In this document: one piece after another, positions 18,478 through 38,410 of the stretch
How positions within the stretch are numbered: position 1 is the first letter of the stretch
Layout of the letters: each line of letters starts with the position of its first letter
Assembly: GCA_001788835.1 (NCBI GenBank)
Contig: MFXK01000017.1
Coordinates: forward strand, 42,285 to 82,284
From: Candidatus Peregrinibacteria bacterium RIFOXYB2_FULL_33_20
Lineage (GTDB): Bacteria > Patescibacteriota > Gracilibacteria > UBA1369 > GWF2-33-10
Length of the DNA: 40,000 bases
Direction: 5' to 3'
Made by a program: the position numbers and the translations under genes
The notes under the pieces: model-generated
What the model saw: the letters and a program-made list of their open reading frames with translations, nothing else
What the model was told of the DNA's origin: nothing
Databases searched by the model: none

Positions 18478-19935
18478 ATGAAAGTAAAAATTTCCAACAA
18501 AATTGGCATAGCCGAAATATTAATTCTTCCGATCATCAAAAATGGACATATCCATTTAAATCTCTCCAAAAACACTAAAAATCAAATTAATAATGCTTTG
18601 CAGACCAAAGATTTCACCGGTGATGAAGATGAAACTCTGATGATTTATGACGAAAACCCTAGCAAAAGAATTTTATTAGTTGGACTGGGCAATAAGAAAG
18701 ATTTAAATTCTTTAAATTATAGACAGGCGGGAGGCAATGCTAGAAACGCTTTAAAAAAAATTAAAGCCGCTAGCGTGGAAATCGCCATGGAGCAAAAATA
18801 CCTATGGCCTTTTCTGGAAGCGTTTCTATTGGCCGGATACAAATTTAATAAATACAAAACCGACATTGATAAAGACAAACATAATATCCAGGATATTTAC
18901 ATCCTTAATGAATCAAAAGACCTCAAGGATCTCCAACAAGAACTGGAAGAGATAACCCAAAATTGCCAAATGATGGATTATGTCCGAGACATGGTCAATG
19001 CGCCAGCGGAAGAAATGTCGCCAAGTGAACTTGTCGCTCAAGCCCAAAAAGTTGCCAATTTATCAACTAACATTAAATTAAAAGTTTTAGATCAAAAAAA
19101 ATTAAAAAAATTAGGATTGAACGCCATCTACACTGTTGGCAAAAGTGGGAAATCAGGATCATATTTAATTCTGCTGGAATATAAATATCAAACTAAAAAC
19201 AAAAACCCATACTCTTTTATCGGTAAAGGAATTTCTTTTGATACGGGCGGTTTACATCTCAAACCCAGAGATAATATTTCTGATATGCACTTAGATATGG
19301 CTGGTGCCGCTACGGTCCTAGGGTTATTCCACAAATTAGCTCTTAACAAAATCCCCGGATATTTCTTGGGAGTAATTGCCACAGCAGAAAACGCTATCGG
19401 CCCTGATGCCTACCATCCCAACGACATCATTAAAACCTATTCCGGAAAAACAGTAGAAATCAAGAATACTGATGCGGAAGGACGTTTGGTATTATGTGAT
19501 GCTATTTCATATAGTAACAAACACTATAAACCAGCCTGCATCATTGACATTGCCACTCTTACAGGTGCCGCTACAGTCAGTGTCGGCGATGAAATCACCC
19601 CTTTCACCTCTAATAATTCAGATTTAACCAAAAAACTTTTATCAGCCGCCAAAAAAACTGATGATTTATTCTGGCAATTGCCTTTGGAAAAATTTCACAT
19701 CAAAGCCACTAAAGGCAAAAATGCTGATCTGACAAATTTCACCAAACACATGCCCGGCCAGGTAATTATGGGCGCTGCCTTTTTGGCGAATTTCATTGCA
19801 GACAACACTCCCTGGCTACATCTCGATATTGCTTCCACTTCTTGGCAGGACAGAAAAATTCTTAGCTATATCCCTGAAGGTGGCACTGGCGTACCACTGT
19901 TAACGTTAATTGAATTAGTAAAAAAACTTGGTTAA
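18478..19935 (+). CDS. pepA: Leucyl aminopeptidase (M17 family)
   Basis: 485 aa. GKGISFDTGGLHLKP, MHLDMAGAA, and the M17 signature NTDAEGRLVLCDAISY. Confidence 0.93.
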   Translation: MKVKISNKIGIAEILILPIIKNGHIHLNLSKNTKNQINNALQTKDFTGDEDETLMIYDENPSKRILLVGLGNKKDLNSLNYRQAGGNARNALKKIKAASVEIAMEQKYLWPFLEAFLLAGYKFNKYKTDIDKDKHNIQDIYILNESKDLKDLQQELEEITQNCQMMDYVRDMVNAPAEEMSPSELVAQAQKVANLSTNIKLKVLDQKKLKKLGLNAIYTVGKSGKSGSYLILLEYKYQTKNKNPYSFIGKGISFDTGGLHLKPRDNISDMHLDMAGAATVLGLFHKLALNKIPGYFLGVIATAENAIGPDAYHPNDIIKTYSGKTVEIKNTDAEGRLVLCDAISYSNKHYKPACIIDIATLTGAATVSVGDEITPFTSNNSDLTKKLLSAAKKTDDLFWQLPLEKFHIKATKGKNADLTNFTKHMPGQVIMGAAFLANFIADNTPWLHLDIASTSWQDRKILSYIPEGGTGVPLLTLIELVKKLG

Positions 19936-21738: not shown

Positions 21739-23064
21739 TCACATTTCCATAACCTCCTCCATCTGCCTAATTCTCTTCCCTATCAACTCTTTTGTCCCAA
21801 TGTCTTTACGATGAAAAACTGGACCTGTAATTAAATTGACCGCTTGTTCACAAATTTTCTCAGCCTTTTCCAAATTTTCGGCAATACCAACAACTCCAAT
21901 AGCTCTAGATCCACATAATTTCAAATCATTTCGCATCCCATCAACCGATGCAAAATAAATTCTCACATCTTTTGACATTTTTTCATAATCAATAAAAATT
22001 TTCTCACCTTTCACCGGCTTGTCAGGATAGCCTTGCGGCACCACATATTTACAAACAGTAGCCTTATTCTCAAACTGAACAACTTTTTTATTCAATTTTT
22101 CATTAACCATAGCCTCACAAATATCAACAAAATCACTTTTCAGCAAAGGCATAATATTCATAGCCTCAGGATCCCCCAACCTAATATTATATTCAATCAA
22201 CTTAACTCCGTTTTTCGTAACAATAAATCCTCCATACATAAAACCTTTAAATTTAAAACCAGTTTCTTTTTCCAAAGCTTTCATCACCGCAACATTAATT
22301 TCATGAGCAGATTTCAAGTCCTGTTCAGTCAGAAATGGCAAACTCAAATTCGCATCAGAATAAGTCCCCATACCACCCGTATTGGGACCGCAATCGCCAT
22401 CATAAGCCCTCTTATGATCCTGCACAGCTGGAAAATCAACAACCGTCACACCATCAACTAAACTTATCAAACTAAATTCCTGTCCAATCAATTTTTCCTC
22501 AATCACAACTTTTCCGCACTCTTTTACACAATCAACAGCATACTGATATCCTTCCTCTATTCCATTCAAATGGTCACCTGAAACTTTCACACCTTTCCCG
22601 CCCTTCAACGCATCATATTTAACAACAAAATCACCACCAAGTTCATCCAAAAACTCTCTAATTCCATCAACATGTTCAAAGGATTTAAACTTCGGATTTC
22701 CAATAATTTTATATTTCTCCAAAAGATTTCGTGTAAAACCTTTTGATGATTCAAGCTGAGAATTAACCTTATTCGGTCCAACTGTCTTAATTCCCAATTC
22801 TAATAAAAAATCTGCCATTCCATTTGCCAATGGATCTTCTGGCCCAACAATCACAAAATCAGGTTTAATTTTTTCAACAAAAATCTTCAAATCGTCAAAA
22901 TTATTCAAACTATTCGTCATAAAATAATCTTCAGACATTTCCAAAATTCCAGGATTCTTAGCTGTTGCAAAAGTAAATAATAAAGTTTTCTGAGGACTTC
23001 TTTTTATAGCTTCTGCAATCGAATGTTCACGCCCACCACTACCAACAAGTAAGATTTTTTTCAT
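21739..23064 (-). CDS. purD: Phosphoribosylamine--glycine ligase
   Basis: 441 aa. MKKILLVGSGGREHSIAEAI, VVIEEKL.GQEFS, DHKRAYDGDCGPNTGGMG, LIEYNIRLGDPE. Confidence 0.95.
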   Translation of the reverse strand: MKKILLVGSGGREHSIAEAIKRSPQKTLLFTFATAKNPGILEMSEDYFMTNSLNNFDDLKIFVEKIKPDFVIVGPEDPLANGMADFLLELGIKTVGPNKVNSQLESSKGFTRNLLEKYKIIGNPKFKSFEHVDGIREFLDELGGDFVVKYDALKGGKGVKVSGDHLNGIEEGYQYAVDCVKECGKVVIEEKLIGQEFSLISLVDGVTVVDFPAVQDHKRAYDGDCGPNTGGMGTYSDANLSLPFLTEQDLKSAHEINVAVMKALEKETGFKFKGFMYGGFIVTKNGVKLIEYNIRLGDPEAMNIMPLLKSDFVDICEAMVNEKLNKKVVQFENKATVCKYVVPQGYPDKPVKGEKIFIDYEKMSKDVRIYFASVDGMRNDLKLCGSRAIGVVGIAENLEKAEKICEQAVNLITGPVFHRKDIGTKELIGKRIRQMEEVMEM

Positions 23065-23073
23065 AATTAAATA

Positions 23074-23412
23074 TCAACTTAAAATATTATGAACTTTCTG
23101 AAGAACTTCATTTAATTTTTCTTTTTTAATCACAGCAACTTTTGCTAAAATAATACTTTTTTCAACTGTCATTATATCACCACATTTAATATATGATTTT
23201 TTCAATATCTCTCCCTTTACAATATCTCTTTGATCTATTTCAAGTTGAAATTTATTTAAATTCTCTTGAGTAGTTATTGCTACAGTGACTACATCAAGAG
23301 ATCCCATATTAAAGACATCATTAGAAATTACTAAAGCAGGTCTTTTTTTATAAGCAGAAAAATCTGTATAAGGGAACTCAAATAATATAATCTCACCTTG
23401 TTTTATGTTCAT
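23074..23412 (-). CDS. Type II toxin, MazF/PemK family endoribonuclease
   Basis: 112 aa. QGEIILFEFPYTDFSAYKKRPALVISNDVFNMGSLDVVTVAITTQ matches the PemK pattern (GdI......P......G.E..K.RPalVvs....n.......v.pitt). Its start overlaps the upstream antitoxin gene by 4 nt (ATGA). Confidence 0.8.
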   Translation of the reverse strand: MNIKQGEIILFEFPYTDFSAYKKRPALVISNDVFNMGSLDVVTVAITTQENLNKFQLEIDQRDIVKGEILKKSYIKCGDIMTVEKSIILAKVAVIKKEKLNEVLQKVHNILS

Positions 23413-23678
23413 ATGGATATATTTTCATTAAAAATATTATCATCATTTTCAGATTTCCAAAAAGCAAAACTTTTTTCTGCAACTGCAAATCTATCAGCTT
23501 GGGATAATTCAGGAAAATCCTCAGGCTTTTCAGTAATTTTAAAAGGAATTCCTTTATTTATAATTATCTGCTGAAAATAAATTTTGATAGCTCCACTCAT
23601 ATCAAGACCCAATCCATCCAAAATTTCTTTTGTTTGATTTTTTATTTTTTCATCTATACGAATTTGTACCGTAGTCAT
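23409..23678 (-). CDS. Type II antitoxin, RelB/DinJ family (ribbon-helix-helix)
   Basis: 89 aa. TTVQIRIDEKIKNQTKEILDGLGLDMSGAIKIYFQQIIINKGIPFKI matches the DinJ pattern (v.aRiDe.lK..a..vl...GLt.S.ai......v.....lPF.). It is translationally coupled to the MazF-like gene. Confidence 0.75.
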   Translation of the reverse strand: MTTVQIRIDEKIKNQTKEILDGLGLDMSGAIKIYFQQIIINKGIPFKITEKPEDFPELSQADRFAVAEKSFAFWKSENDDNIFNENISI

Positions 23679-23753
23679 ATAAAAAAATTAATTATAATCT
23701 ACAATTAGTATAAATACTCAGTAATGACAATGTCAATACGTTTCATGAAAACT

Positions 23754-24143
23754 TTAAAACTTTTTATAAACTTCCATCAACTCTTTATCAAAACTAAAAA
23801 GTTCAAAATTACGATTTTTTGAAACAATAAGCAAAGATAAATCCACCATTGAGAGTTTTGTTCTTTGATATGGGAAATTATTTACTATTTGGCTAAATTC
23901 ATCAAGAAGTAAATTTACTATTTCTATATTTTCACTATTATTTAAAAAATCAATAAATTGCTTTGATATTTCAGCTCCTTCTTTTAACAATAAAACCGTT
24001 CCAATTTCAAAAAGCACATGCTCTGAAATACAAAACCCATCTAATTTTGACAAAAATTCAATTACCTTTTTGTGATGTACATCTTCTCTACGAAAAAAAG
24101 CAATTAAAATATTTGAATCCAATAAAACTTTTTTATTTATCAT
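23754..24143 (-). CDS. vapC: Type II toxin, PIN-domain VapC
   Basis: 129 aa. N-terminal VLLDSNILIAFF (first PIN acidic residue), ...ISEHVLFEI... (conserved Glu), ...MVDLSLL... (third acidic residue). Overlaps the upstream antitoxin gene by 11 nt. Confidence 0.75.
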   Translation of the reverse strand: MINKKVLLDSNILIAFFRREDVHHKKVIEFLSKLDGFCISEHVLFEIGTVLLLKEGAEISKQFIDFLNNSENIEIVNLLLDEFSQIVNNFPYQRTKLSMVDLSLLIVSKNRNFELFSFDKELMEVYKKF

Positions 24144-24519: not shown

Positions 24520-27500
24520 TTATTTTAATGCCTTTGCCTGTGTTTTCTTATTTCCTCCTCCACATAAGGCAACAGTACTGGCAAATGTTCTTCTAACATT
24601 TTCTATACAGCTATCTAAATCTCTTTGCGCTGATTGTCGTAAAATTTGTTGTTGATTAGTGGTTAATTCATTTCTATGAAAGATACCATTTGGCAAATCT
24701 CCTCCTCGATCCACAGCTTCTTGGTAAGCTTTACAATTTTTAGCCCAATTCCCGTCATTGTAGAGAATATAATTCTTAGATGGATCAAATAATTCTCTTA
24801 TATTATCTTGTATAGCACCAGCATCTTTTAAAGATTGTTTACATTCTTTTATTTCTCTTCCAGTTACTGTAGTTATATCACTACTTATTATATCTATAGC
24901 TTCATCATCTAAATTATAATTTATAAAAGACAAACATCCATTAATTTCAGGTTGCCCAAGTTCATTACATATTGAATGCCAATCAGTTGCTTTATTTTGT
25001 GCATTTGAAGATACAGTTACAGTTAATGGATCGCTATCTGTTGATTTTGACAATGCATTTGTCCATGCCTCATAAGTTATATCATGTCCAGATAAAATTA
25101 AATTAACAGGCTGTGTACCAGGGAATACAACTGTGTCAAAAGTAACTTTTGGAGTTGTACTAGTCATAGCTCCTTCTGGCATAACTACTGCCTGACACTC
25201 TGATTTTATACAATACAAAGCGCCTAATCCATAATCAACAGTATTTATTAAAGTAGCTTGAACAGATAATTCTCCGACACCTAATTGTAGAGGACCACAT
25301 TTTTTTCTTTTTTTAAATCCATTATCTCTATCTGATCCCAAACATTCTTTCAAATCAGTTAAAGTTTTACCTTCGACCGTAATTATTTGAGGAAAAGAAA
25401 TAGCTTCACCTCCCTTCACTGGTTTTTCAGTGGGAGGAGGAAGTGTAGACCCGCTTGTTTCTTCACTAACTGATTGAGTCGGAGATAAAGTTGGATCAGC
25501 TAATCCTGTTTGAGCCTGTTGTGCATTTGATTGATAAGTGTCATACATTTGTATCCCTGCCCCAACAATCATTCCTGCAGACCCAATTCCTACCAATGGC
25601 CAAATCCAGCGATGTGAGGAAGTGGAAGGAGAGGATGGAGTTTTAAGCTGATGTTCTCTTTCTGCTAATGGAGAAACGGCTACTGGTAATTCATTTTGTT
25701 TTTCAATATGGAATGGTAAAGCTGAAGCTGGAGCTGGAGCTGGAGCTGGAGCTGGAGCTGGAGCTGGAGCTGGAGCTGGAGCTGGAGCTGGAGCTGGAGC
25801 TGGAGCTGGAGCTGTCACTACTTCAATCAATAATTCAGGCTCTCCTTCAGTAGATGCAGTTGTTTCTGGCCTTCCATCTTTTACCACCTCAGTTAAGAGA
25901 ACAACATCTTCATCTCCATTTCCATCTCTATTCCCACTCTGTTCAGATAACATGACCATTGATTCTTCTTCCAATGTTAATACTTCTTCTGATTCAGACT
26001 CATCTTCTAAATCAGGTGAAACAGCTATAATTAGCGCTTTTAAAGAATTATCAACGAACTCTCTTATATCTGTGCTAACAGTAACAGGTCGGCCATCCCT
26101 TATAATAAGGAAAGGTATATCTGCATTTTCTTGTTCAATCTCTGTTTTTCTGCTTGCTATTAATTCCTTTACTTTAGCTTCTGTTTTTGCTCTTTCTGCT
26201 ACATCCATTAAATTTACAATTTTTGTGGCATCTTCCAGCCTATGACCATTTAATTTTAAGACCACCATTGTTTGATTACCGCATTTCATTCTATTTAAAA
26301 TATCATCCATCATGCGTGCTGGCTTCACCAAAACCTGATTACTATTATACCTTTCTTCTCTCGGGATAGATTCATCACAAAACCTATCTTCAACGTCTTC
26401 AGATACTAATTTATAACACAATTCTATAAACTCTATAATTGCATCATAATCAGAACCAGTTTCCGCACTGATATTTGCTGCGTATTTCTGTTTTTTTTCA
26501 GATATTTCCTTAGCGCCTTCTCTTATTTTTTTACCAATATAACCAAGCGCATTATTTTCTGTTATCTTTAACTTATCACCGTTTAACTTTGTTCCTTCTG
26601 TAAATTTGGCTCTCATTAAATCAGAATCAATTATTTCCAACCCAATTACACCCAAAGCATAAGCATCTGTTGCAAAGGTTGGCTTATCTGATTCTTTCAA
26701 CATCCATGGGATATATTTAGGTGTCCCAGTCATCAATTTTTTCTTACGTTTTTTTATACGTTCAGGAGTCGTACAAAATGAATTGTCTCCAAGTTTACCT
26801 GTATCAGCCTCATTATTACCACCCAAAAATATATTTTCAGGTTTTAAATCTCTATGTATTTTACCTCTTAAATGTTTATTTTTAACTTCTTCCAAAGCTG
26901 TACCCAATGATCTCATTTGAAAAAAACGAGTTTTTTTTGCTCGGTCTTCAACAGAATCATCTGTTTTTCTTTGCCTTAAAAATTTCCTTAAAGTATTTGC
27001 TCTTCTAATGTATTCCATTTTTTCCATTAGCCCTCCGCAGTCAGATCCTTCCAGCCCACACAATCCTACTCCAACCCACTTTGTTTCTACACTTGCTGGA
27101 TTATTAACAGAAAATGGCAACTCTTCTTTAAGACTTGTTAAGTCAAACAAACACGCTCTAGGACTTGTACAATCAAACCATGAAAATTTTAATACATCAT
27201 CTGTTGGCCTTAATACAGAACATTTAATATCTGGACTCCATAACCTAAATGCTTCCGCAACAGCTCCTTTACCCAAAAATCCTCCAGCATATATCTCTAA
27301 TTCACCTTCTTTCACTTTCTTAAATATAGATTGATTCGATAGAAGTTTTTCAATAGCTGCTCTTGTTTTTACACCTGGATGACTATATGGCCTTTCATCA
27401 GCATCAGCATCATCCTCACCATTGACATCTCCTACATATATCGTAGCCTTATCTAAGGTAGCTAATTTAGCTATACTACTATCAGAATCAAGCAAAACCG

Positions 27501-27573
27501 ATGGTATAAAGATAGGTCTTCTATTATATTTTAAAGCTTCATCTAACGCGGTGGATTTTTGGCTGGTTTCCAT
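24520..27573 (-). CDS. Transmembrane eukaryotic-like Ser/Thr protein kinase homologue (atypical), with (Ala-Pro)14 linker and Cys-rich extracytoplasmic C-terminal domain
   Basis: 1017 aa. Gly-rich loop GGFLGKGAVAEAF (~aa 97-109). Catalytic loop IHRDLKPENIF (H codon at 26854..26856). KLGDNSF occupies the DFG position (DNS at 26779..26787). TGTPKYIPWML resembles GTPxYMAPE. An acidic region and then T(AP)14ASA follow. There is a single TM helix, WIWPLVGIGSAGMIVGAGIQMY (~25543..25608). The ~340-aa C-terminal domain has more than 10 Cys. Confidence 0.8.
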   Translation of the reverse strand: METSQKSTALDEALKYNRRPIFIPSVLLDSDSSIAKLATLDKATIYVGDVNGEDDADADERPYSHPGVKTRAAIEKLLSNQSIFKKVKEGELEIYAGGFLGKGAVAEAFRLWSPDIKCSVLRPTDDVLKFSWFDCTSPRACLFDLTSLKEELPFSVNNPASVETKWVGVGLCGLEGSDCGGLMEKMEYIRRANTLRKFLRQRKTDDSVEDRAKKTRFFQMRSLGTALEEVKNKHLRGKIHRDLKPENIFLGGNNEADTGKLGDNSFCTTPERIKKRKKKLMTGTPKYIPWMLKESDKPTFATDAYALGVIGLEIIDSDLMRAKFTEGTKLNGDKLKITENNALGYIGKKIREGAKEISEKKQKYAANISAETGSDYDAIIEFIELCYKLVSEDVEDRFCDESIPREERYNSNQVLVKPARMMDDILNRMKCGNQTMVVLKLNGHRLEDATKIVNLMDVAERAKTEAKVKELIASRKTEIEQENADIPFLIIRDGRPVTVSTDIREFVDNSLKALIIAVSPDLEDESESEEVLTLEEESMVMLSEQSGNRDGNGDEDVVLLTEVVKDGRPETTASTEGEPELLIEVVTAPAPAPAPAPAPAPAPAPAPAPAPAPAPASALPFHIEKQNELPVAVSPLAEREHQLKTPSSPSTSSHRWIWPLVGIGSAGMIVGAGIQMYDTYQSNAQQAQTGLADPTLSPTQSVSEETSGSTLPPPTEKPVKGGEAISFPQIITVEGKTLTDLKECLGSDRDNGFKKRKKCGPLQLGVGELSVQATLINTVDYGLGALYCIKSECQAVVMPEGAMTSTTPKVTFDTVVFPGTQPVNLILSGHDITYEAWTNALSKSTDSDPLTVTVSSNAQNKATDWHSICNELGQPEINGCLSFINYNLDDEAIDIISSDITTVTGREIKECKQSLKDAGAIQDNIRELFDPSKNYILYNDGNWAKNCKAYQEAVDRGGDLPNGIFHRNELTTNQQQILRQSAQRDLDSCIENVRRTFASTVALCGGGNKKTQAKALK
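25721..25813. repeat. Perfect hexanucleotide microsatellite (GCTGGA)14 inside the kinase CDS
   Basis: 14 perfect GCTGGA units at 25727..25810. They are flanked by a degenerate unit GCTGAA (25721..25726) and a partial GCT (25811..25813). On the coding (minus) strand the codons are GCT-CCA, giving (Ala-Pro)14. Confidence 0.95.
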
Positions 27574-29704: not shown

Positions 29705-30865
29705 TTATCCAGCCAACGCTTTCACCCCTGGCAATTCTCGGCCCTCCAAAAACTCCAACATGGCTCCACCACCCGTTGAGACATGATAAAACTTTTTCTC
29801 ATCAATCTTAAACCTTTTTAAAGCATCGATTGTTTCTCCGCCACCAATTATTACCTTGCCTTTAGCAATTGCTAACGCTTCAGCAATTTTTTTTGTCCCT
29901 TTCGCAAAACATTCGCATTCAAAAAGCCCCAATGGTCCGTTCCAGATAATCATGGCGGATTTATTAATCACATACAAATATTTCATGAGCGTAGTTTTGC
30001 CAATATCCAAAATTTTCATATCGCCTTCCACATCCTCTACCGGCAAATTTAAGGTTAGAGCTTTATCATTCATCTCACTTGCCACCACGGCATCGCTTGG
30101 AATTACAAATTTATCTTTATAAACTTCAGCACTCAACATAATTTCTTGCGCAGTTTCTAATTTATCCTCCTGATAGAGTGATTTTCCAATATCAAAACCC
30201 TGCGCAAATAAAAAAGTATTGGCAATGCCTCCGCCCACCAAAATATTATCTGCCTTATGAATAAATTCTTTTAACACGCCAATTTTAGTGTCAATTTTGG
30301 CTCCACCAATTATCAAAGTTAAAGGTTTTTGGGGATGATCTAAAACTTCAGTCAAAACCTCAATTTCTCTTTGCAACAAAAGTCCGGCATAACTTGGCAA
30401 AAGCTTAGCAATACCAACAATTGAAGCATGAGCTCGATGGGAACAGCCAAAAGCATCATTAACATAAATATCCGCCAGTTTCGCCCAAGCTTTAGCCAGT
30501 TTTTCATCATTTTTTTCTTCGCCAGGATCGAATCTGACATTTTCCAGCATAGCGATTTTGGCTGAGTTTGGTATTTCTTTTGGCGCTACTTCTTTCGATT
30601 GCCAAATTGTTTCTTTTAAAATTTTTTCTAAATATTTAGCGATAAATCCTACCCGTAAATCATCAATAATTTGTCCTTTGGGCCTACCAAAATGCGTGGC
30701 AAGAATAATCTGTTTTGCTCCTTTTTTCAACAAATATTTAATGGTCGGCAAGGCAGACATAATTCTAGTATCATCTGAAATAAGGCCTTGGCTATCCACT
30801 GGCACATTAAAATCTACTCTAAGCCAAACACGTTTATTTTTGAGGTTTACTGATTTTAAATTCAT
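29705..30865 (-). CDS. pgk: Phosphoglycerate kinase
   Basis: 386 aa. RVDFNVP, ILATHFGRPKG, NVRF..GEE.ND, NDAFG.SHRAHAS, ISTGGGA.LEFLEG..LPG. Confidence 0.96.
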   Translation of the reverse strand: MNLKSVNLKNKRVWLRVDFNVPVDSQGLISDDTRIMSALPTIKYLLKKGAKQIILATHFGRPKGQIIDDLRVGFIAKYLEKILKETIWQSKEVAPKEIPNSAKIAMLENVRFDPGEEKNDEKLAKAWAKLADIYVNDAFGCSHRAHASIVGIAKLLPSYAGLLLQREIEVLTEVLDHPQKPLTLIIGGAKIDTKIGVLKEFIHKADNILVGGGIANTFLFAQGFDIGKSLYQEDKLETAQEIMLSAEVYKDKFVIPSDAVVASEMNDKALTLNLPVEDVEGDMKILDIGKTTLMKYLYVINKSAMIIWNGPLGLFECECFAKGTKKIAEALAIAKGKVIIGGGETIDALKRFKIDEKKFYHVSTGGGAMLEFLEGRELPGVKALAG

Positions 30866-30909: not shown

Positions 30910-31341
30910 TTAGCATCTTTTCATGGTCTCCATCATTTCAAAAATAGTTCTGACACCAATATAGCCTTTGTTTTCATGCCAATTTTTAAGGGAAGCCCTC
31001 GCTTTGGCATGCAAAATATCGCGCACCATCAACACCTCAAACACAATCGGAATTTCAAAATCCAACATCACTTGCCGCACTCCATCTACCATGGCCCGAC
31101 AAAGCATTTCATAGTGATCAGTCTGGCCTTTAATCACCGCCCCCAAAGTCAAAATCGCATCATATTTCTTGCTTTTGGCTAATTTTTTACAAATTAAAGG
31201 AATTTCAAAAACTCCAGGAACTTCCACAATTTTGACATTTTTCACGTTAAATTTCATTTCTTGCAAATATTTCAAAGCGCCTTTGAGTAAATTACTGGTA
31301 ATTGGCAGATTAAAATTAGAATAAACAATGGCTATCCTCAT
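30910..31341 (-). CDS. ribH: 6,7-dimethyl-8-ribityllumazine synthase family protein
   Basis: 143 aa. RIAIVYSNFN..IT..LL.GA...L, VEVPGVFEIPL..KKLA.S.KYDAILTLGAVIKGQTDHYE, V..G......D..IP..FEVL. No other rib genes are in the window. Confidence 0.85.
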   Translation of the reverse strand: MRIAIVYSNFNLPITSNLLKGALKYLQEMKFNVKNVKIVEVPGVFEIPLICKKLAKSKKYDAILTLGAVIKGQTDHYEMLCRAMVDGVRQVMLDFEIPIVFEVLMVRDILHAKARASLKNWHENKGYIGVRTIFEMMETMKRC

Positions 31342-31403: not shown

Positions 31404-32747
31404 TCACGCATTCGCATAAACAACTGATCTCAACTGACGCAAATTTTCAAAAGCACGCCATAATTGAGGACTGGTATTTTCCTTAGTAAATTTATCAATA
31501 CGATAATGGAAATGGCTGAAAGCATTTTGCATATTCAATTGCGCTTCCGCCGCATTATTCGCTTTGACCGTTACCCAGCCTAAATAGTCATAACCTTCAG
31601 GCGGCGCAAAAATCGCATCGCCTTCTTGTTTAAATAGTTGAAAATCGTATAAATATTTTTTACCATAAATATCTTCGTTTACGTTAAATGTTGCTAAATG
31701 CCCTGAAAAATCAGGCAAGAAATATTGACCCATTAAATACATGTTTGGCTTAGCTCCACGCTCAATTCTACCCATATCAATGCCTAAAGCGATTTTGGCG
31801 GCGTTTTCCACCAAATCACAGCCCCACGCCCCTTTCACAAAACTCCAAACCTCATCGCCTCCCATTCGTAAATTCACTTCAATCGGTACGGCTCCATTCT
31901 TCGTAGACTTGGCTTCAAAATGAATGCAACCGTTTTTCACTCGCAGTTTTTCCAAAGTAGACTTGGCCATACTAATCAATTCATCCTGATTGTTACCTGG
32001 TAAAAGAGAAGGAATAATCTGTCCGGTCTCCACGAAGTAAGGCTCACGGGTCTTAAAATTATCAGTAATTGAGTAATATCTAATTTCGCCATTTTGGACC
32101 AAAATATCAATATCCACTTCATCACCATCAATGTACTCTTCCACCAAAATATCTGACTCGCGAATCACAGCTTCCTCTCTTTTGCACAAATTATCTTTTA
32201 AATAATTATAAAATTTCACTAATTCATAAGTGTTTTCAATTTTGATCACGAACAAGCTTGCCGCTCCGCAAGTTGGTTTAATGACACAAGGAAACGTAAA
32301 ATTCCGCGCAATATAATCCAAATCCTCCTTGTTTTTGATCAATTTATGCTTAGGCGCTGGCAAATTATTGTTACGACAAAATTCCCGAAATAAATACTTA
32401 TTTCTGACCTGAGAAGAAATAGTTAAAGGGATGCCAATAAAACCAAATTTATCCACAATTTTGGAAGTCAACACTACATCCTGCTCCCAAAAAGTTAAAG
32501 CCCCTTCAATTTTCAGATCCGGATGTCTCACCATAAAGCGTTCTACCGCTGTTATGGCTTCCGCATGATTATTGTTATCGGCAATAATAAAATGATCAAC
32601 TAGACTTTCCGCCCAATTCTTTTCTTTGTGAAGGGCGATAATTTTCAAGCCTAATTCTTTTAATCTCTCAACGATAAATTTCTTTTTAATAGAACCGGTA
32701 TTAACCAACAAAATTGTTTTACCCTGTAAAGAGTTTATAACTTGCAT
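31404..32747 (-). CDS. ATP-grasp ligase, L-amino-acid-ligase / carnosine-synthase-like, paralogue 1 of 3
   Basis: 447 aa. GKTILLVNTGSIKKKFIVERLKELGL, NWAESLVDHFI, FPCVIKPTCGAAS (ATP-binding Lys strand), VEEYIDGDEVDIDIL, PIEVNLRMGGDEV (Mg/phosphate-binding E-x-N). It carries a ~30-aa C-terminal tail that the other two copies lack. Confidence 0.8.
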   Translation of the reverse strand: MQVINSLQGKTILLVNTGSIKKKFIVERLKELGLKIIALHKEKNWAESLVDHFIIADNNNHAEAITAVERFMVRHPDLKIEGALTFWEQDVVLTSKIVDKFGFIGIPLTISSQVRNKYLFREFCRNNNLPAPKHKLIKNKEDLDYIARNFTFPCVIKPTCGAASLFVIKIENTYELVKFYNYLKDNLCKREEAVIRESDILVEEYIDGDEVDIDILVQNGEIRYYSITDNFKTREPYFVETGQIIPSLLPGNNQDELISMAKSTLEKLRVKNGCIHFEAKSTKNGAVPIEVNLRMGGDEVWSFVKGAWGCDLVENAAKIALGIDMGRIERGAKPNMYLMGQYFLPDFSGHLATFNVNEDIYGKKYLYDFQLFKQEGDAIFAPPEGYDYLGWVTVKANNAAEAQLNMQNAFSHFHYRIDKFTKENTSPQLWRAFENLRQLRSVVYANA

Positions 32748-32764
32748 AAATAAAATTTAATTTA

Positions 32765-34015
32765 TTATATAATTTTATAACTTAAATGATTAAAAGCATC
32801 TTGCATATTGCTTTCCGCTTCCTGCGCGTTATCACCTTTCACCGTTACCCAGCCCAAATAATCATACCCATCGGGCGGAGCCATAACTTTGTCGCCTTTT
32901 TTCCAAAACAACTGCAAATCGTATAAGTATTTTTTTTGGCGCACTCTTTCATCCAAATTACAGTAGGCCAAAACCCCAGACTTATTCGGCAAAAAATATT
33001 TACCCATCAAATAAGTCAATGGTTTCAAGCCTCGTTTAATTTCGCCCATATCAATTCCCAAAGCAATTTTGGCCGCATTTTCCACCAAATCACAGCCCCA
33101 CGCCCCTTTAACAAAACTCCAAACCTCATCGCCTCCCATCCGCAAATTTACTTCAATCGGCACGGCTCCATGCTCACTAGACTTTGCTTCAAAATGCATA
33201 CAGCCATCAGTAATATGTAATTTACTCAAAGTATCTTTAGCCATAACAAAAAGTTCGTTTTGTCTTTTTTTAGATAAAATTGATGGAATAATTTGTCCAG
33301 TTTCCACAAAATATGGCTCTTGAGTTTTAAAATTATCAGTAATCGAATAATACCTAATCTCACCACCTTGAATCAAAATATCCATATCCACTTCATTGCC
33401 GTCAATATATTCCTCCACAAATAATTCTGATTCTCTAATAAATTTTTCTTCATCGCTATTAATATTACTTTTGATAAATTCAAAGGTTTTTTTCAAATCC
33501 GCTTGGCTTTCGATTTTGACCACCCAGCAACTAGCCGCTCCCAAAGTCGGCTTCATCACCAAAGGAAAGGTAAAATTTTCAGACACATATTTCAAATCAA
33601 CTTCATTTGTAATCAATTTATGTTTTGGCGCGGGGATATCGTGTTGACCGCAAAATTCTCTAAAGAGATACTTATTACGAACCTTATTAGCAACTTTCCA
33701 AGAAATTCCCTTAAATCCATATTTATCAACTAATTTGGAAGCCAACAAAACATCATGTTCCCAGAATGTCATCACCCCGCCAATCTTAATTTCAGAATGA
33801 ACTTTCATAAAATTGGCAATATCTTGCAAAGCTCTATCATGATCCTCATTGTCAGTAATTACCCAATGATCTATGCAATCCTCCGCCCAGTTTTTAGTTT
33901 TATTAACCACCACCAAATTTAACCCAAGCTCTTTCAACCGCTCCAGAATAAATCTTTTTTCATGAGGACCAGTGTTCAGTATTAGTATTGTTTTACCATG
34001 TAAAGTCTCGCTCAT
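32765..34015 (-). CDS. ATP-grasp ligase, L-amino-acid-ligase / carnosine-synthase-like, paralogue 2 of 3
   Basis: 416 aa with the same motif set (GKTILILNTG, FPLVMKPTLGAAS, VEEYIDGNEVDMDIL, PIEVNLRMGGDEV). It shares a 41-aa block with paralogue 1, AVPIEVNLRMGGDEVWSFVKGAWGCDLVENAAKIALGIDMG, with 100% identity. Confidence 0.8.
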   Translation of the reverse strand: MSETLHGKTILILNTGPHEKRFILERLKELGLNLVVVNKTKNWAEDCIDHWVITDNEDHDRALQDIANFMKVHSEIKIGGVMTFWEHDVLLASKLVDKYGFKGISWKVANKVRNKYLFREFCGQHDIPAPKHKLITNEVDLKYVSENFTFPLVMKPTLGAASCWVVKIESQADLKKTFEFIKSNINSDEEKFIRESELFVEEYIDGNEVDMDILIQGGEIRYYSITDNFKTQEPYFVETGQIIPSILSKKRQNELFVMAKDTLSKLHITDGCMHFEAKSSEHGAVPIEVNLRMGGDEVWSFVKGAWGCDLVENAAKIALGIDMGEIKRGLKPLTYLMGKYFLPNKSGVLAYCNLDERVRQKKYLYDLQLFWKKGDKVMAPPDGYDYLGWVTVKGDNAQEAESNMQDAFNHLSYKII

Positions 34016-34030
34016 ATTTTTAAAAAATAT

Positions 34031-35335
34031 TTAAGAGTGAATTTTAGAAATTTCATAATTGATTAAGCCCAAAGCTTCTTGTAAATTTTGCTTCGCTTCA
34101 TATTCTGTATCCCCTGAAACAGTGACAAAACCCAGATATTCATAACCATCTGGAGGCACTAGCAAGGTATCACCTTCTTTTTTAAAAAATTCTAATTTTT
34201 GCAAATAACTTTTCTGATGAATACGCTCATCAACATGCAATCTTTTCACTACGCCTGAATGATCAGACATCAAATCAAATCCAGCAAAACATTGCTTGGC
34301 TTGTGATGATTTAATCACTTTAACATCTTCTCCCAAAGCTATTTTTATTGCCTGTTCAATCAAATCAATACCCCATGCCCCTAATACAAAATCTCTCACT
34401 TCATCCCCCCCCATGCGTAAATTTACTTCAATCGGCACCGCCCCTTCCTTTGTCGATTTAGCTTCAAAATGGATACAGCCATCAGTAACAGAAAATTCCT
34501 TCAACACTTTCACCGCCATAGCATACAAATCATCCTGTTCATCAACAGGCAGCCGTGATGGAATATTAAATCCTGTCTCAATAAAATAAGGTTCACAAGT
34601 TTCTAAATTATCAGAAATAGAATAAAATTTAACCTCACCATTTTGAATCAAAATATCAATATCCACTTCACTGCCGCTAATATATTCTTCGACTATAATT
34701 TTGGCATCTTTCGTTACATATTGTTTATTGGCAGGCACCTTCAATCTTATCGCTTCATATTTTTCAATTAAATCATCTTTATTGTCAGCCTTGATCACAA
34801 AGGCACTGCTTGAACCATGGGTAGGCTTCACTACCACCGGAAATGTCAAAGTGGTGAGCGCGGTGTGCAAATCTTTTGCTGAATCTATCAAAACACACTT
34901 GGGCGCATGTACATCATATTTCTCACAAAATTTTCTAAATAAAAATTTATTCTTAAAATTTTCTACCACTACCGATTTAAGGCCCTTAAGACCATATTTA
35001 TCAGCAATTTTGGCGACCAATAACGGTTCGTTATTGTAACTTTCACAAAATGTAATAACTCCATCAATTTTCACTGCTGGATGCAAAGTCAAGAAATCTG
35101 ACAAATCATGCAAAGCTTGATCATGATTAGAAACATCAGTAAAAATCCAGTGACTGATATAAGGCTCAGCCCAATTGATCTGTTTATGTAAGACAATAAT
35201 ATTTACACCTAATTCTTTGATGCGTTTCAAAATGAACTCTTTGCTTGGAAAACCGGTATTAACAAGGAGAATAGTTTTATTATTAGCCCCCAACGGGTCC
35301 GGAGGAGGTTCTTCGTTATTTATATCAACTATCAT
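34031..35335 (-). CDS. ATP-grasp ligase, L-amino-acid-ligase / carnosine-synthase-like, paralogue 3 of 3 (most divergent)
   Basis: 434 aa with the same motif set (NKTILLVNTG, FPVVVKPTHGSSS, VEEYISGSEVDIDIL, PIEVNLRMGGDEV). First gene of the minus-strand run, with a 147-nt AT-rich upstream region. Confidence 0.8.
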   Translation of the reverse strand: MIVDINNEEPPPDPLGANNKTILLVNTGFPSKEFILKRIKELGVNIIVLHKQINWAEPYISHWIFTDVSNHDQALHDLSDFLTLHPAVKIDGVITFCESYNNEPLLVAKIADKYGLKGLKSVVVENFKNKFLFRKFCEKYDVHAPKCVLIDSAKDLHTALTTLTFPVVVKPTHGSSSAFVIKADNKDDLIEKYEAIRLKVPANKQYVTKDAKIIVEEYISGSEVDIDILIQNGEVKFYSISDNLETCEPYFIETGFNIPSRLPVDEQDDLYAMAVKVLKEFSVTDGCIHFEAKSTKEGAVPIEVNLRMGGDEVRDFVLGAWGIDLIEQAIKIALGEDVKVIKSSQAKQCFAGFDLMSDHSGVVKRLHVDERIHQKSYLQKLEFFKKEGDTLLVPPDGYEYLGFVTVSGDTEYEAKQNLQEALGLINYEISKIHS

Positions 35336-35482
35336 ATAAAAAAAATACTTCTATAAATTTATTTACTCCTTTGTATATATTTTGCAAGAGATTTTAAGTT
35401 AAAATGATCCAAATCAAAATTTGAATTTTTAATTATTTTCTGTTAGATTGTACTCTTCTTTTTTTAAAAAAATTTTTAAATT

Positions 35483-35860
35483 ATGGAAATTATAAGTCAT
35501 GAGTCTCGTCAATCTTCCAGTCAGTCACTAATACCTCCTCTTAATATACAAAATTTAAGAGGCATATTGAAAACATATCCTGAAGTATTTTTAAACACAC
35601 CTGTAATGCTAACTCACCTCGCTAATTTAGTTGACAGTTGTGGAGAAGGGCTTCCATTAAATATGCATTTAGAGGCGGAATTTAAGAAGCTATGGGCAAC
35701 AATTATTGGGAAAAGCAGGCAGGATCTTCGTGAATATTTAGTGAAAATTTTCAAATCAGATATAATAGAATTTACATTATTTCCTGATTTACTACGAAAA
35801 TTTGCAGATATATTAAGAAAGGCAAATGACAAGGAAACAGATGATATTTTTGAAAATTAG
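35483..35860 (+). CDS. Hypothetical protein
   Basis: 125 aa ORF, the only plus-strand gene between 28472 and 40000. No motif recognised. Predicted helical and soluble from composition. Confidence 0.5.
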   Translation: MEIISHESRQSSSQSLIPPLNIQNLRGILKTYPEVFLNTPVMLTHLANLVDSCGEGLPLNMHLEAEFKKLWATIIGKSRQDLREYLVKIFKSDIIEFTLFPDLLRKFADILRKANDKETDDIFEN

Positions 35861-35948: not shown

Positions 35949-37289
35949 TTACTCCTCTAAATTTGTATCTCCAAAAGATATTGGTAATAATTCTTCAATA
36001 TCATTTTTTACCAAAACATTACCTGTACTGGAAACCATAATAAATCTATGCTCCTCTCCTGGTTTTGCAAAATCTCTTAATGCTTGACGACATCTGCCAC
36101 AAGGAGCGGTTGGTATACTGGATTCAATCCCGGCAGGTTTACCGATAGTCACTATTTTTTTGAATTTTTTCTTATCTCCTTCTAATTTAGCTAAAGCTAT
36201 TCGTTCAGCGCATATACCATCTCCATTGCTTCTTTCACCATTAGCGCCCACATAAATTTCCCCTGTTTCAGCCTGTACAGCCGCGCCAACTACAAAACGG
36301 TAATGCTTGCTTTGAGCCATAGTTTCCATTGCTTCTCTTGCGCTTCTTACCAATTCCTGTTCGTCTTCAGGTAATTCATCAACAGTTAAATATGGCTTAT
36401 AATTGATTGACACACCTTTTTCCTCTATATCTTTATTAAGATAATCCATAACAATTCGTTCTGCATTACCGGAAAATTTCTTTAATTCTTCAGGCGTTGA
36501 AGTAATTTGATCGCCATTAAACCGATTTACAATTACTGTGCATATAACCGCCGCCGGTATACCTGCTGCTAAACAAAAAGCCGCTATTTGTAACGCTTCC
36601 ATTTCTATATTTCTTACTCCAGCTTCATAAGCTTTATGCAAAAACGCCATAGCTTCTTCTGATGTATATAGTGGTTTTAGAGCGCCATCAAGACGTCCCT
36701 GCTCTTCATAAAAACCGTCACAACTCATGGTTTTACCCATCACAGTTACTATATCTCCTCGCGCCGCAAATATTCTCTCAGTTAATGCTCGATTTATTTG
36801 TGTCGGACGTTTCACTTTTTCCCCAAAAATTGTTCTTTCATCTTCAGCTTTAAGTTCACCATTTACCGCTTCTGAAGTAACTACTACTGTACCTGGTTCC
36901 ACTCCCAAACTACCAGAAGTACCTATTCGAATATACTCATAATAGGGACATTTAGCGTGTTCTAAAAGTTTGGTTATTTCATTCAAAGGAAGACTAGCAG
37001 ATGGAGCTCCAATTCCATGGGATACGATTAGAATCGGACCTACTTTATACAATGAATATCTTTCTTTTGTGCCAATTGGCTGTAATCCTCCAAATGGCAA
37101 TTCAAATCCAAATTCTTTTACTAATTGTTCCGCAAAATTCTTTACTCTATCAGCACTCCCAGACATACAAACATATCGCACATCTCCAAACATTCCTTTG
37201 AGAGGCATCGTATTATTCAAGCCTAAATGATGTAAATAATCCACATCTAATTCTTTTAAATAAGGATTTTGAACTGATTCTGCTATCAT
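35949..37289 (-). CDS. Bifunctional fusion: eukaryotic-type uridine phosphorylase (N-terminal) + cytidine deaminase (C-terminal)
   Basis: 446 aa. The N-terminal ~300 aa are collinear with UPP1-type uridine phosphorylase (FGDVRYVCMSGSADRVKNFA, YKVGPILIVSHGIGAPSAS, IRIGTSGSLG.EPGTVVVT, FYEEQGRLDGAL, AGVRNIEMEA, NRFNGDQI). The C-terminal ~135 aa carry the cytidine deaminase zinc motifs CAERIALAKL and PCGRCRQAL, plus LLPISFG. Confidence 0.85.
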   Translation of the reverse strand: MIAESVQNPYLKELDVDYLHHLGLNNTMPLKGMFGDVRYVCMSGSADRVKNFAEQLVKEFGFELPFGGLQPIGTKERYSLYKVGPILIVSHGIGAPSASLPLNEITKLLEHAKCPYYEYIRIGTSGSLGVEPGTVVVTSEAVNGELKAEDERTIFGEKVKRPTQINRALTERIFAARGDIVTVMGKTMSCDGFYEEQGRLDGALKPLYTSEEAMAFLHKAYEAGVRNIEMEALQIAAFCLAAGIPAAVICTVIVNRFNGDQITSTPEELKKFSGNAERIVMDYLNKDIEEKGVSINYKPYLTVDELPEDEQELVRSAREAMETMAQSKHYRFVVGAAVQAETGEIYVGANGERSNGDGICAERIALAKLEGDKKKFKKIVTIGKPAGIESSIPTAPCGRCRQALRDFAKPGEEHRFIMVSSTGNVLVKNDIEELLPISFGDTNLEE

Positions 37290-37312: not shown

Positions 37313-38410
37313 TTAATTTTGAACAGGTACCATTCGAGAAATATTTCCATTTCTTGATTCCACTAAAATCTTTTTAATTATATTTAATAATTCAACCTTC
37401 ATTTGATTAGCTTTCCTTTGTACTTCTTCTCCATCTAATTGAGCAACAAAACCATTTGGGCCTAAAGATGCCGCATAATTAGTTAAAACACTAAAAAATA
37501 AAATCAAATTTTGGAAAGCAGGATGTTTTTTTGATTGCATTGCATGAAAAATTGTTAACAATTCATATACTGTAGACATACCTACAACGCCTCTTGCCTG
37601 ACCTTGGAACCATTCGTTAAGTCCATTTTGTTGTTGTCCTTGTCGCCAAAAATTTTCAAGTCTTGCGCGCATATCCAAAACAGTAGCAACTGTTTCATAA
37701 TTTGGACCAGGGGCTCTAAAATAAATACCATCTGTTACAGATCCACATATTTCTCTAGCTAAATCTAATATTTTTTCATGAAACGCTACATTATACATTG
37801 CAGTAACAGAAGGAAATCTTACACCACACTCTGATTCATTTTTTCCTTTTAATGGATTATTATCTCCACAATTAACTTCCAAAAAATCATTAATCAACAT
37901 AATAGAAGGTTCTTTTAATGTATTTGGAGTAAGAATCCCAGCCGCATTTGAACCAATAATAGTTTGCACTCCTAATAACTGCATCAATCTCAACCAAATA
38001 ATTGCTCGTTTAGGATCAGTGCCTTCATATAAATGTTCTCGGCCATCTTGAACTATAAGTGGTTTATCTCCTAAACCTACAATCGGACCTATGATAAGTC
38101 TTTTTTTGTGTCCAGTATCATTTTCACCAGAATCTCTGCCAAAAAGTATATATAAAAAAGCCCTTACTTGATCAGACCAACCAATTATTCCAGCTTCTTT
38201 TAATACGTCTTCATAAGTCAAAATAATAGGACCGCTAGGTTCACCAGCCTTTTCGATATTCATATTTTCTTCTGGAATGGCACCAGAACCAGAACCTATA
38301 ATGATGGCTTCATCTATTTCGTCAAAATTAAGACCATGATCTTCTCCCCTTCTTACCACAACATCTCGTAAACGACTTACAGAATCATATCCATATTTTT
38401 CTTTAGTCAT
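37313..38410 (-). CDS. Purine nucleoside phosphorylase (trimeric, human-PNP-type, PNP/MTAP family)
   Basis: 365 aa. AIIIGSGSG, DGREHLYEG (GRFHxYEG), IGSNAAGIL (TNAAGGL), NPLKGKNESECGVRFPSVTAMY (NPLxGPNDxxFGxRFPxMSxAY), APGPNYET (GPSFET), VVGMSTVYE (GMSTVPE). Longer than the usual length I recall (under 300 aa) because of internal insertions. Confidence 0.85.
   Translation of the reverse strand: MTKEKYGYDSVSRLRDVVVRRGEDHGLNFDEIDEAIIIGSGSGAIPEENMNIEKAGEPSGPIILTYEDVLKEAGIIGWSDQVRAFLYILFGRDSGENDTGHKKRLIIGPIVGLGDKPLIVQDGREHLYEGTDPKRAIIWLRLMQLLGVQTIIGSNAAGILTPNTLKEPSIMLINDFLEVNCGDNNPLKGKNESECGVRFPSVTAMYNVAFHEKILDLAREICGSVTDGIYFRAPGPNYETVATVLDMRARLENFWRQGQQQNGLNEWFQGQARGVVGMSTVYELLTIFHAMQSKKHPAFQNLILFFSVLTNYAASLGPNGFVAQLDGEEVQRKANQMKVELLNIIKKILVESRNGNISRMVPVQN

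Follow-up and report, generated by a model that had tools for sequence, protein, structure and literature searches.

What three paralogous ATP-grasp ligases, encoded one behind the other, might contribute to a bacterium of reduced genome is the question raised by the locus described here. The window, as we call the whole 40,000-nucleotide stretch of DNA that was analysed, belongs to contig MFXK01000017.1 of Candidatus Peregrinibacteria bacterium RIFOXYB2_FULL_33_20, a member of the Candidate Phyla Radiation (CPR), and is AT-rich, with a G+C content of ~33%. Its genes A, B and C, named in the order in which they are read, encode stand-alone ligases of the L-amino-acid-ligase (LAL) type (Table 1). 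A preliminary description of the window had seen in them a candidate for the stepwise construction of a small peptide. The three are indeed intact members of this enzyme type and, to judge from their sequences, look like a lineage-specific paralogue expansion of a module that in the CPR is almost always fused to a ligase resembling D-alanine-D-alanine ligase (Ddl). The explanation that we favour, with about half of our confidence behind it, is that they are three active LAL-type ligases, parallel paralogues with different specificities, from a family with a core member tied to the metabolism of cell-wall peptides.

Three intact ligases of the L-amino-acid-ligase type

The open reading frame (ORF) calls recovered the three co-directional frames at exactly the coordinates first proposed, with the same 15- and 17-nt gaps between them. 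In Pfam, all three products exceed the gathering score of ATP-grasp_4 (A 83, B 80.6 and C 91 bits) and that of LAL_C2 (47.4, 48.7 and 33.8 bits, respectively, vs 29.4), and ATPgrasp_N passes its threshold (27) only in B (27.6 bits; A 23.4, C 17.1). Every motif quoted in the preliminary description was found in every copy: FPxVxKPTxG(A/S)S, EEYI(D/S)GxEVDxDIL and PIEVNLRMGGDEV are exact in all of them, and the N-terminal motifs vary slightly, KTILLxNTG reading KTILILNTG in B and RLKELG reading RIKELG in A. The features that define the ATP-grasp superfamily, namely the fold, the two ATP-binding lysines, the Gly/Ser loop, the acidic pair and E-x-N-x-R-x-G-G, are present in A, B and C. The catalytic residues are invariant among the copies (K130, K170, G174, S177, E216/E217, E291, E303, N305, R307 and G309/G310 in A; K115, K155, G159, S162, E201/E202, E276, E288, N290, R292 and G294/G295 in B), and of 53 family members at least 90% keep them at these positions.

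Searches against known structures point in the same direction. With phmmer, the LALs come first among the proteins of the PDB, headed by BL00235 (3vot, E=5e-24) and followed by BacD (5e-13) and RizA (1.5e-11). An AlphaFold2 model of B, built from the 53-sequence family alignment, reached a mean predicted local distance difference test (pLDDT) score of 95.2, and Foldseek ranked 3vot at the top for it, with a template-modelling (TM) score of 0.85, together with 4wd3 and 3vmm; BacD scored 0.82, and PurK, PurT and biotin carboxylase stood below the LALs (~0.65-0.72). Altogether, since the Pfam matches, the rankings by PDB sequence and by Foldseek, and the catalytic residues with their spacings all agree, A, B and C are intact LAL-type ATP-grasp ligases, as the preliminary description had proposed, and we infer that they are enzymatically active.

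No NCBIfam model reaches its curated cutoff on these proteins, so that none of them falls firmly into a clade of known substrate. This bears on the idea that they might be disguised housekeeping enzymes (PurK, PurT, PurD, Ddl, biotin carboxylase or GshB) or redundant or decaying duplicates, for which one could cite weak cross-matches to all ATP-grasp families and the TM scores of ~0.7 to PurK, PurT and biotin carboxylase. The profile scores largely refute it: D-Ala-D-Ala ligase reaches 34-42 bits vs 243 (NF002378) and 25-35 vs 246 (TIGR01205), PurK 28 vs 326, PurT 24 vs 339, PurD 22 vs 288 and biotin carboxylase accC 22-25 vs 723. Moreover, the window has its own purD and gshB, the organism's fusion protein already contains a Ddl-like domain, and neither a frameshift nor a lost catalytic residue was found in A, B or C, in keeping with the earlier impression that none of them is decaying. 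This reading is therefore scarcely credible. Other models tried on the three proteins were BacD (NF053745, 37-54 bits vs 850), DdaF (NF041595, 30-35 vs 840) and those of GshB, LysX, PylC and cyanophycin synthetase, all with cutoffs far above what A, B and C score; the LdmS model did not appear among their NCBIfam hits.

Peptides or proteins, rather than free amino acids, have also to be considered as substrates, the three then being PGM1-like peptide ligases, graspetide maturases or enzymes of RimK/TTL-type tailing. CPR bacteria do encode ATP-grasp maturases of ribosomally synthesised and post-translationally modified peptides (RiPPs) (PMC8939145), and every copy has weak Pfam RimK matches that lie near or under the threshold. 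On the other hand, the architecture is ATPgrasp_N + ATP-grasp_4 + LAL_C2 and not that of RimK or of graspetide enzymes, the RimK model TIGR00768 gives 30-41 bits vs a cutoff of 143, and the structural neighbours are ligases of free amino acids. Neither hallmark of a graspetide or other RiPP maturase, a precursor gene and a RimK-like architecture, is found with A, B and C, no precursor-like small ORF adjoining the triplet, and we consider this alternative very unlikely.

The copies are paralogous far beyond chance (E ~1e-120), with pairwise identities of 63.8% for B and C, 48.4% for A and B and 47.9% for A and C. The magnitudes first estimated by eye ('two-thirds' and 'about half') were thus right, and the outlier was not: it is the upstream gene A, which had been listed first, and the close pair is formed by the downstream B and C. 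That divergence is concentrated outside the nucleotide-binding core, as had been suggested, agrees with the identity of individual regions. All three copies agree at 65-80% of the positions in the Mg/acyl-phosphate core (B residues 201-240 and 281-320), compared with 5-20% in the lid region (161-200) and at the start of the C-terminal LAL domain (321-360).

A strain variant of the locus (L087/P0013) is identical to the window over 6.6 kb apart from a single in-frame indel of 39 nt, by which it lacks codons 194-206 of A (EAIRLKVPANKQY). The deletion falls in the lid segment, the most variable part among the three copies, and may reflect either polymorphism in the population or an artefact of assembly.

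The LAL-Ddl fusion family and the origin of the triplet

In a scan of one genome per species, 256 loci were found to encode a relative of these ligases, nearly all of them in the CPR, and the best 80 were analysed. The relatives are 40-52% identical, belong almost without exception to Patescibacteria/CPR, and for the most part carry either no name or that of 'ATP-grasp domain-containing protein', a few bearing the automatic JGI labels 'biotin carboxylase', 'carnosine synthase' or 'D-alanine-D-alanine ligase'. The second of these labels, given to three stand-alone homologues (P0030, P0045 and P0063), would fit enzymes making beta-alanyl, gamma-aminobutyryl (GABA-yl) or similar dipeptides as buffers, osmolytes or antioxidants, and carnosine synthase CARNS1 is itself an ATP-grasp enzyme. 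Among 250 matches, though, no curated source uses the name, and no neighbourhood examined holds a link to beta-alanine or histidine metabolism, which makes a carnosine-type function highly improbable.

In 79 of the 80 loci, the module seen in A, B and C forms the N-terminal half of a fusion protein of ~800-830 aa with a Ddl-like ATP-grasp ligase (example regions, some with the surrounding operon, are L034:9965-12400, L012:9989-18536, L055:3453-12397 and L063:1676-12397), and in the remaining one (L081) the LAL-like and Ddl-like halves are two adjoining genes. The C-terminal half of the fusion matches Pfam Dala_Dala_lig_C at 1e-32 to 1e-35, and its PDB matches are only Ddl/Van ligases. On one metagenome contig (L001), a stand-alone member is directly followed by a Ddl-like gene of 322 aa. 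The N-terminal domains of the fusions have a mean pairwise identity of 59% across many CPR lineages, with 138 columns conserved at 85% or more and a median of 6 deviations per member at these columns, and they behave like orthologues.

The recurrent partners of the fusion gene, which are co-directional with it, were derived from neighbour clustering, Pfam/NCBIfam annotation and gene order. The most frequent is a 458-aa protein, found in 35 loci, always on the same strand and often with a 4-nt overlap with the fusion gene; by eye it has a PP-loop-like SFGKES motif and a CxxCxxC motif, and it gave no match to Pfam, NCBIfam or PDB sequences. It is followed in frequency by a LysA-like decarboxylase dependent on pyridoxal phosphate (25 loci; 171 bits vs a cutoff of 298), a member of the enolase superfamily whose best match is L-Ala-D/L-Glu epimerase (13 loci; 168 bits vs 500), a 366-aa protein without Pfam or NCBIfam match (11 loci), a Fem-like GNAT protein (Acetyltransf_6, 10 loci) and an ATP-binding cassette (ABC) exporter (9 loci). 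A third ATP-grasp protein of ~430-446 aa is also recurrent, and is of the Pfam ATP-grasp_3 type, not LAL-like. In two loci (L055 and L063) the gene order is murD-ftsW-murG, a ddl-like gene (349-358 aa), the 458-aa protein and the fusion, and another (L062) has the same murG and ddl-like lead-in, cut by the contig end. Elsewhere the fusion stands alone among housekeeping genes, for instance those of ClpB, Tmk, IleRS and RuvA, and in 4 related loci an M17 peptidase is its upstream neighbour. Other stand-alone relatives are paired with amide-forming enzymes, one with an LdmS-like ATP-grasp protein (L004) and another with a GCS2 carboxylate-amine ligase (L086); the latter has a further partner tagged CntK_N in precomputed Pfam annotation, a match that our own Pfam scan did not reproduce. 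Gene fusion and neighbourhood thus appear to tie the family to D-Ala-D-Ala-type ligation and to enzymes for constituents of peptidoglycan peptides. In the literature searched for the CPR fusion or the LAL-like family, no paper describing them was found, and the fusion with its operon appears undescribed.

The organism of the window very likely has this fusion in addition to the three stand-alone paralogues, that is, four LAL-like modules. The 811-aa fusion of the sister bin GWA2_33_10 (L034) was deposited both as KKP39267.1 and as KKP37490.1, the latter only 34 accession numbers before A-C (KKP37524-26). The window matches contig UR28_C0029 of a Candidatus Peregrinibacteria bin from aquifer groundwater, whose products UR28_C0029G0007 and G0008 share 100% identity with B and C, and the Rifle groundwater datasets in which the fusion turns up again also contain the triplet proteins. 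The fusion gene of this species lacks operon partners and has as neighbours the genes of an SLH/S8 peptidase, of an RF-1-domain protein and of an ion channel. To its N-terminal domain A is 47%, B 50.5% and C 55% identical, C being the closest, and at the 138 fusion-conserved columns A shows 33 deviations, B 32 and C 21, as is usual for stand-alone members, of which the median is 39. A, B and C themselves neither contain nor adjoin a Ddl-like ligase, which sets them outside the orthologue group of the LAL-Ddl fusion: a profile hidden Markov model (HMM) of the fused Ddl-like domain gives 21-30 bits on them, and no Ddl-like partner gene was found within the 40-kb window.

In a bootstrapped neighbour-joining tree, B and C are sisters in 200/200 replicates, and the deeper groupings are recovered less often: monophyly of A, B and C in 48/200, their exclusion from the fusion clade in 89/200 and their nesting inside the Peregrinibacteria fusion clade in 26/200. 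The A-B-C order is kept on every independent contig carrying B among the matches listed (4 listed, with 15 further similar places). Apart from the organism's own copies, nothing above ~50% identity was found in a set of 5.8 billion proteins, the JGI metagenome contigs hold no closer relatives of A, and no comparable stand-alone array was found in other genomes or metagenomes of these collections, where the only other multi-copy loci found were one with a fusion and two far more divergent LAL-like genes (L015) and one with two fusions (L064). As the organism very likely has the fusion too, the triplet looks, from these comparisons, like a lineage-specific expansion of paralogues.

Possible functions of the triplet and its surroundings

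By analogy with the family, each enzyme would bind Mg-ATP and convert an amino-acid-like substrate, by phosphorylation of its alpha-carboxylate, into an acyl-phosphate. A second amino acid or a short peptide would attack this with its amino group, giving an amide bond, ADP and Pi. A, B and C would descend as paralogues from the module that in the CPR is near-universally fused to a Ddl-like ligase, B and C as the younger duplicate pair and A as an older or separately acquired copy, keeping an identical acyl-phosphate/donor site and diverging in the lid and the C-terminal LAL domain. Since lid and C-terminal domain differ, and 21-33 of the 138 columns in each copy deviate from the consensus of the fusions, the small amides that they produce (dipeptides or short peptides) would most likely not be the same, and the three would work in parallel rather than form an obligatory assembly line. 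What the family is associated with in genomes points to a role in cell-envelope or peptidoglycan peptide metabolism, possibly with D-amino acids, rather than in an antibiotic-type natural product.

The preliminary description had instead imagined three ligases acting in sequence, each adding one residue, to yield one tri- or tetrapeptide, or serially decorating one metabolite. The genes are co-directional, tightly packed and all intact, and CPR relatives also group several ATP-grasp ligases, as in the loci with a fusion and a third ATP-grasp protein or in L015. Moreover, there is a precedent for two LALs in sequence: in rhizocticin biosynthesis RhiM acts first and then RhiC, two enzymes that are 20% identical to each other (PMC13579937). 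A, B and C are by contrast 48-64% identical. They differ neither in the donor/acyl-phosphate motif PIEVNLRMGGDEV nor around it, which suggests that one kind of carboxyl donor serves all of them, and not a chain that grows from step to step. Tailoring, export and resistance genes do not adjoin the triplet, and the triplet was found in no other genome of the collections, so there is no conserved 'module'. Finally, the nearest relatives are a strongly conserved single-copy CPR module fused to a Ddl-like ligase, not natural-product genes, and their neighbourhoods are cell-wall-flavoured or housekeeping. Stepwise construction gains nothing from context or conservation; it is possible, not the best supported reading, and we hold it to be unlikely.

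Several points weigh against the favoured explanation of parallel ligases with a cell-wall connection. The closest characterised enzymes are only ~21-25% identical to this family, for which reason the substrates of A, B and C cannot be read from them. The fused C-terminal domain scores best on the NCBIfam Ddl models, yet with 152 bits vs a cutoff of 243, and because this domain and the neighbouring proteins fall below curated NCBIfam cutoffs, their functions are to be taken as putative. The triplet itself has no cell-wall-type neighbour and lies between nucleoside-salvage genes and ribH/pgk, and its 15-17-nt spacing is equally compatible with sequential action. The presence of the fusion in the same genome rests on adjacent accession numbers and an identical sister-bin protein, not on a common contig. 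The analysis establishes how the genes are laid out, their paralogy, the fold, the intact catalytic residues, the spread of the family, and the fusion with its neighbourhoods; that the enzymes are active, which class of substrate they use, that their specificities have diverged and that they are connected with the cell wall is what we infer.

A bolder variant of the cell-wall connection would make the LAL-like family part of a CPR-specific, Mur-ligase-independent route to pieces of the peptidoglycan peptide as free peptides. For example, L-Ala-L-Glu would be made and turned into L-Ala-D-Glu by the dipeptide-epimerase-like neighbour, the fused Ddl domain would provide D-Ala-D-Ala, and the LysA-like enzyme would carry out the step from diaminopimelate (DAP) to Lys. 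The three paralogues would then provide alternative peptides for stems or cross-bridges, or link the pieces to one another. If true, this would give an organism without amino-acid racemases or biosynthesis its D-residue-containing wall peptides, a proposal that we regard as doubtful.

Returning to three active ligases working in parallel, the triplet would add to the known enzymes three uncharacterised, probably active amide-bond-forming ones with possibly new specificities, useful for dipeptide biocatalysis, and it illustrates how a gene family can expand within a reduced CPR genome. Of wider consequence is something beyond the window: the module is among the more widely conserved CPR proteins without assigned function, the LAL-Ddl fusion being currently annotated as 'D-alanine-D-alanine ligase' or 'ATP-grasp domain-containing protein', and if it serves synthesis or salvage of cell-wall peptides it bears on how episymbionts of minimal biosynthesis build their envelope. 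In this regard, the fusion and its operon are a more notable lead than the triplet.

Regarding expression, no terminator-like site was found in the A-B and B-C spacers, and we take A, B and C to be probably co-transcribed. The AT-rich region upstream of A is likely the promoter region of the run, an assignment that stays putative since promoter and terminator scans of the run score equally well on shuffled sequence. Downstream, C is separated by 62 nt from ribH and ribH by 44 nt from pgk, which is followed by a 401-aa protein without assigned function. The linkage to ribH to which the preliminary description drew attention did not hold: neither ribH nor pgk neighbours any family member in 84 related loci, and both are co-directional only, with no evidence of a functional link to the triplet. 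Its statement that no non-ribosomal peptide synthetase (NRPS), precursor peptide or exporter adjoins was borne out, as no NRPS, precursor-like small ORF or tailoring, export or resistance gene was found beside the triplet.

On the upstream side, a divergent ORF shares the intergenic region with the triplet and is kept in the strain variant L087. Beyond it, a phosphorylase/deaminase fusion and a second PNP_UDP_1 protein look like a nucleoside-salvage pair with an unusual fusion; neither these phosphorylases nor ribH and pgk offer a functional clue for the triplet, and none of them is conserved alongside the family. An ArsP-type permease lies 3 kb upstream of it.

Elsewhere in the window, a glutathione-synthase-type ATP-grasp gene adjoins an M17 leucyl aminopeptidase gene, and gshA was not found within the window. 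Single genes of ribH, trpD, purD and ilvD/edd type have no pathway partners nearby, which may be either the typical patchiness of CPR genomes or a sign of repurposing. A MazF-like toxin stands beside a PIN-domain protein, and this pair adjoins a large protein with a partial kinase match. An SLH-domain protein is encoded in the window, and an SLH/S8 peptidase (L088:1-2338) beside the organism's LAL-Ddl fusion, which suggests that this Peregrinibacterium has an S-layer attached to secondary cell-wall polymers.

Table 1. Coordinates of the triplet and of other features within the 40,000-nt window
Feature	Coordinates	Strand	Details
Gene A	34031-35335	minus	434 aa; KKP37524.1, UR28_C0029G0006; stand-alone LAL-type ATP-grasp ligase; most divergent copy
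Gene B	32765-34015	minus	416 aa; KKP37525.1; stand-alone LAL-type ATP-grasp ligase
Gene C	31404-32747	minus	447 aa; KKP37526.1; stand-alone LAL-type ATP-grasp ligase; ~30-aa C-terminal tail
A-B spacer	34016-34030	minus	15 nt; read from sequence
B-C spacer	32748-32764	minus	17 nt; read from sequence
Segment of A missing in strain variant	34718-34756	minus	A codons 194-206
Divergent intergenic region upstream of A	35336-35482		147 nt, AT-rich
ribH (lumazine synthase)	30910-31341	minus	Pfam DMRL_synthase; TIGR00114 114.8 bits vs cutoff 84.6
pgk	29705-30865	minus	Pfam PGK 446 bits
ORF divergent from A	35483-35860	plus	125 aa; no Pfam/NCBIfam match
Phosphorylase/deaminase fusion	35949-37289	same as triplet	446 aa; uridine/purine-nucleoside-phosphorylase-family domain + cytidine-deaminase domain
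Second PNP_UDP_1 protein	37313-38410		adjoins the 446-aa fusion
Glutathione-synthase-type ATP-grasp (gshB)	16916-17857		NF003573 294 bits vs cutoff 272
M17 leucyl aminopeptidase	18478-19935
trpD	13120-14151		431 bits vs cutoff 199
purD	21739-23064
ilvD/edd-type dehydratase	1419-3161
MazF-like toxin and PIN-domain protein	23074-24143
Protein adjoining the MazF-like/PIN pair	24520-27573		1017 aa; only partial Ser/Thr kinase domain match
SLH-domain protein	5923-8604		893 aa

Comparison with named systems

Among the closest systems is the CPR LAL-Ddl fusion itself (KKP37490.1/KKP39267.1). A, B and C share with it the family to which its N-terminal half belongs (47-55% identity) and the motifs. The three differ from it in ending after LAL_C2, without the Ddl-like half, and in lacking the PP-loop-like, epimerase-like, LysA-like and third ATP-grasp partners as well as the mur/fts neighbours. 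The fusion in turn has a precedent in the bifunctional MurC-Ddl protein of chlamydiae (NF011171), in which Ddl is also joined to another ligase of peptidoglycan precursors, and this parallel is what makes it suggestive. There, the partner is a Mur-type ligase acting on UDP-N-acetylmuramic acid (UDP-MurNAc) and not an ATP-grasp LAL, so that the likeness is conceptual only, a weak 46-bit match of the Ddl-like protein of L001 to the NF011171 model being its sole data point.

Among characterised enzymes, BL00235 of Bacillus licheniformis (3vot) differs from A, B and C in phylum and genomic context, in its ~21% identity and in reading GGSGV after the catalytic Arg where the three read GGDEV, and its substrates cannot be transferred to them. 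It has nonetheless the same three-domain LAL architecture, the sequence match extending over residues 12-406 and the fold match having a root-mean-square deviation of 3.3 Å, and the catalytic Lys/Glu/Glu/Asn/Arg/Gly set is common to all. BacD/YwfE, the Ala-anticapsin ligase of bacilysin, and the rhizocticin ligases RizA/RhiM and RhiC lie in antibiotic clusters with tailoring and resistance genes, unlike the triplet. They are likewise stand-alone LALs, which couple unprotected amino acids by way of an acyl-phosphate, and their fold matches have TM scores of 0.82 for BacD and 0.73 for the rhizocticin enzymes. The structures of RhiM and RhiC define the LAL set as two ATP-binding lysines, a Gly/Ser loop, two Mg-binding glutamates and an Arg that holds the substrate carboxylate, followed by Gly (PMC13579937). 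The spacing of K107, K147, E258, E271, R275 and G278 in RhiC (40, 12-13, 4 and 3 residues) matches that of K115, K155, G159/S162, E276, E288, R292 and G295 in B.

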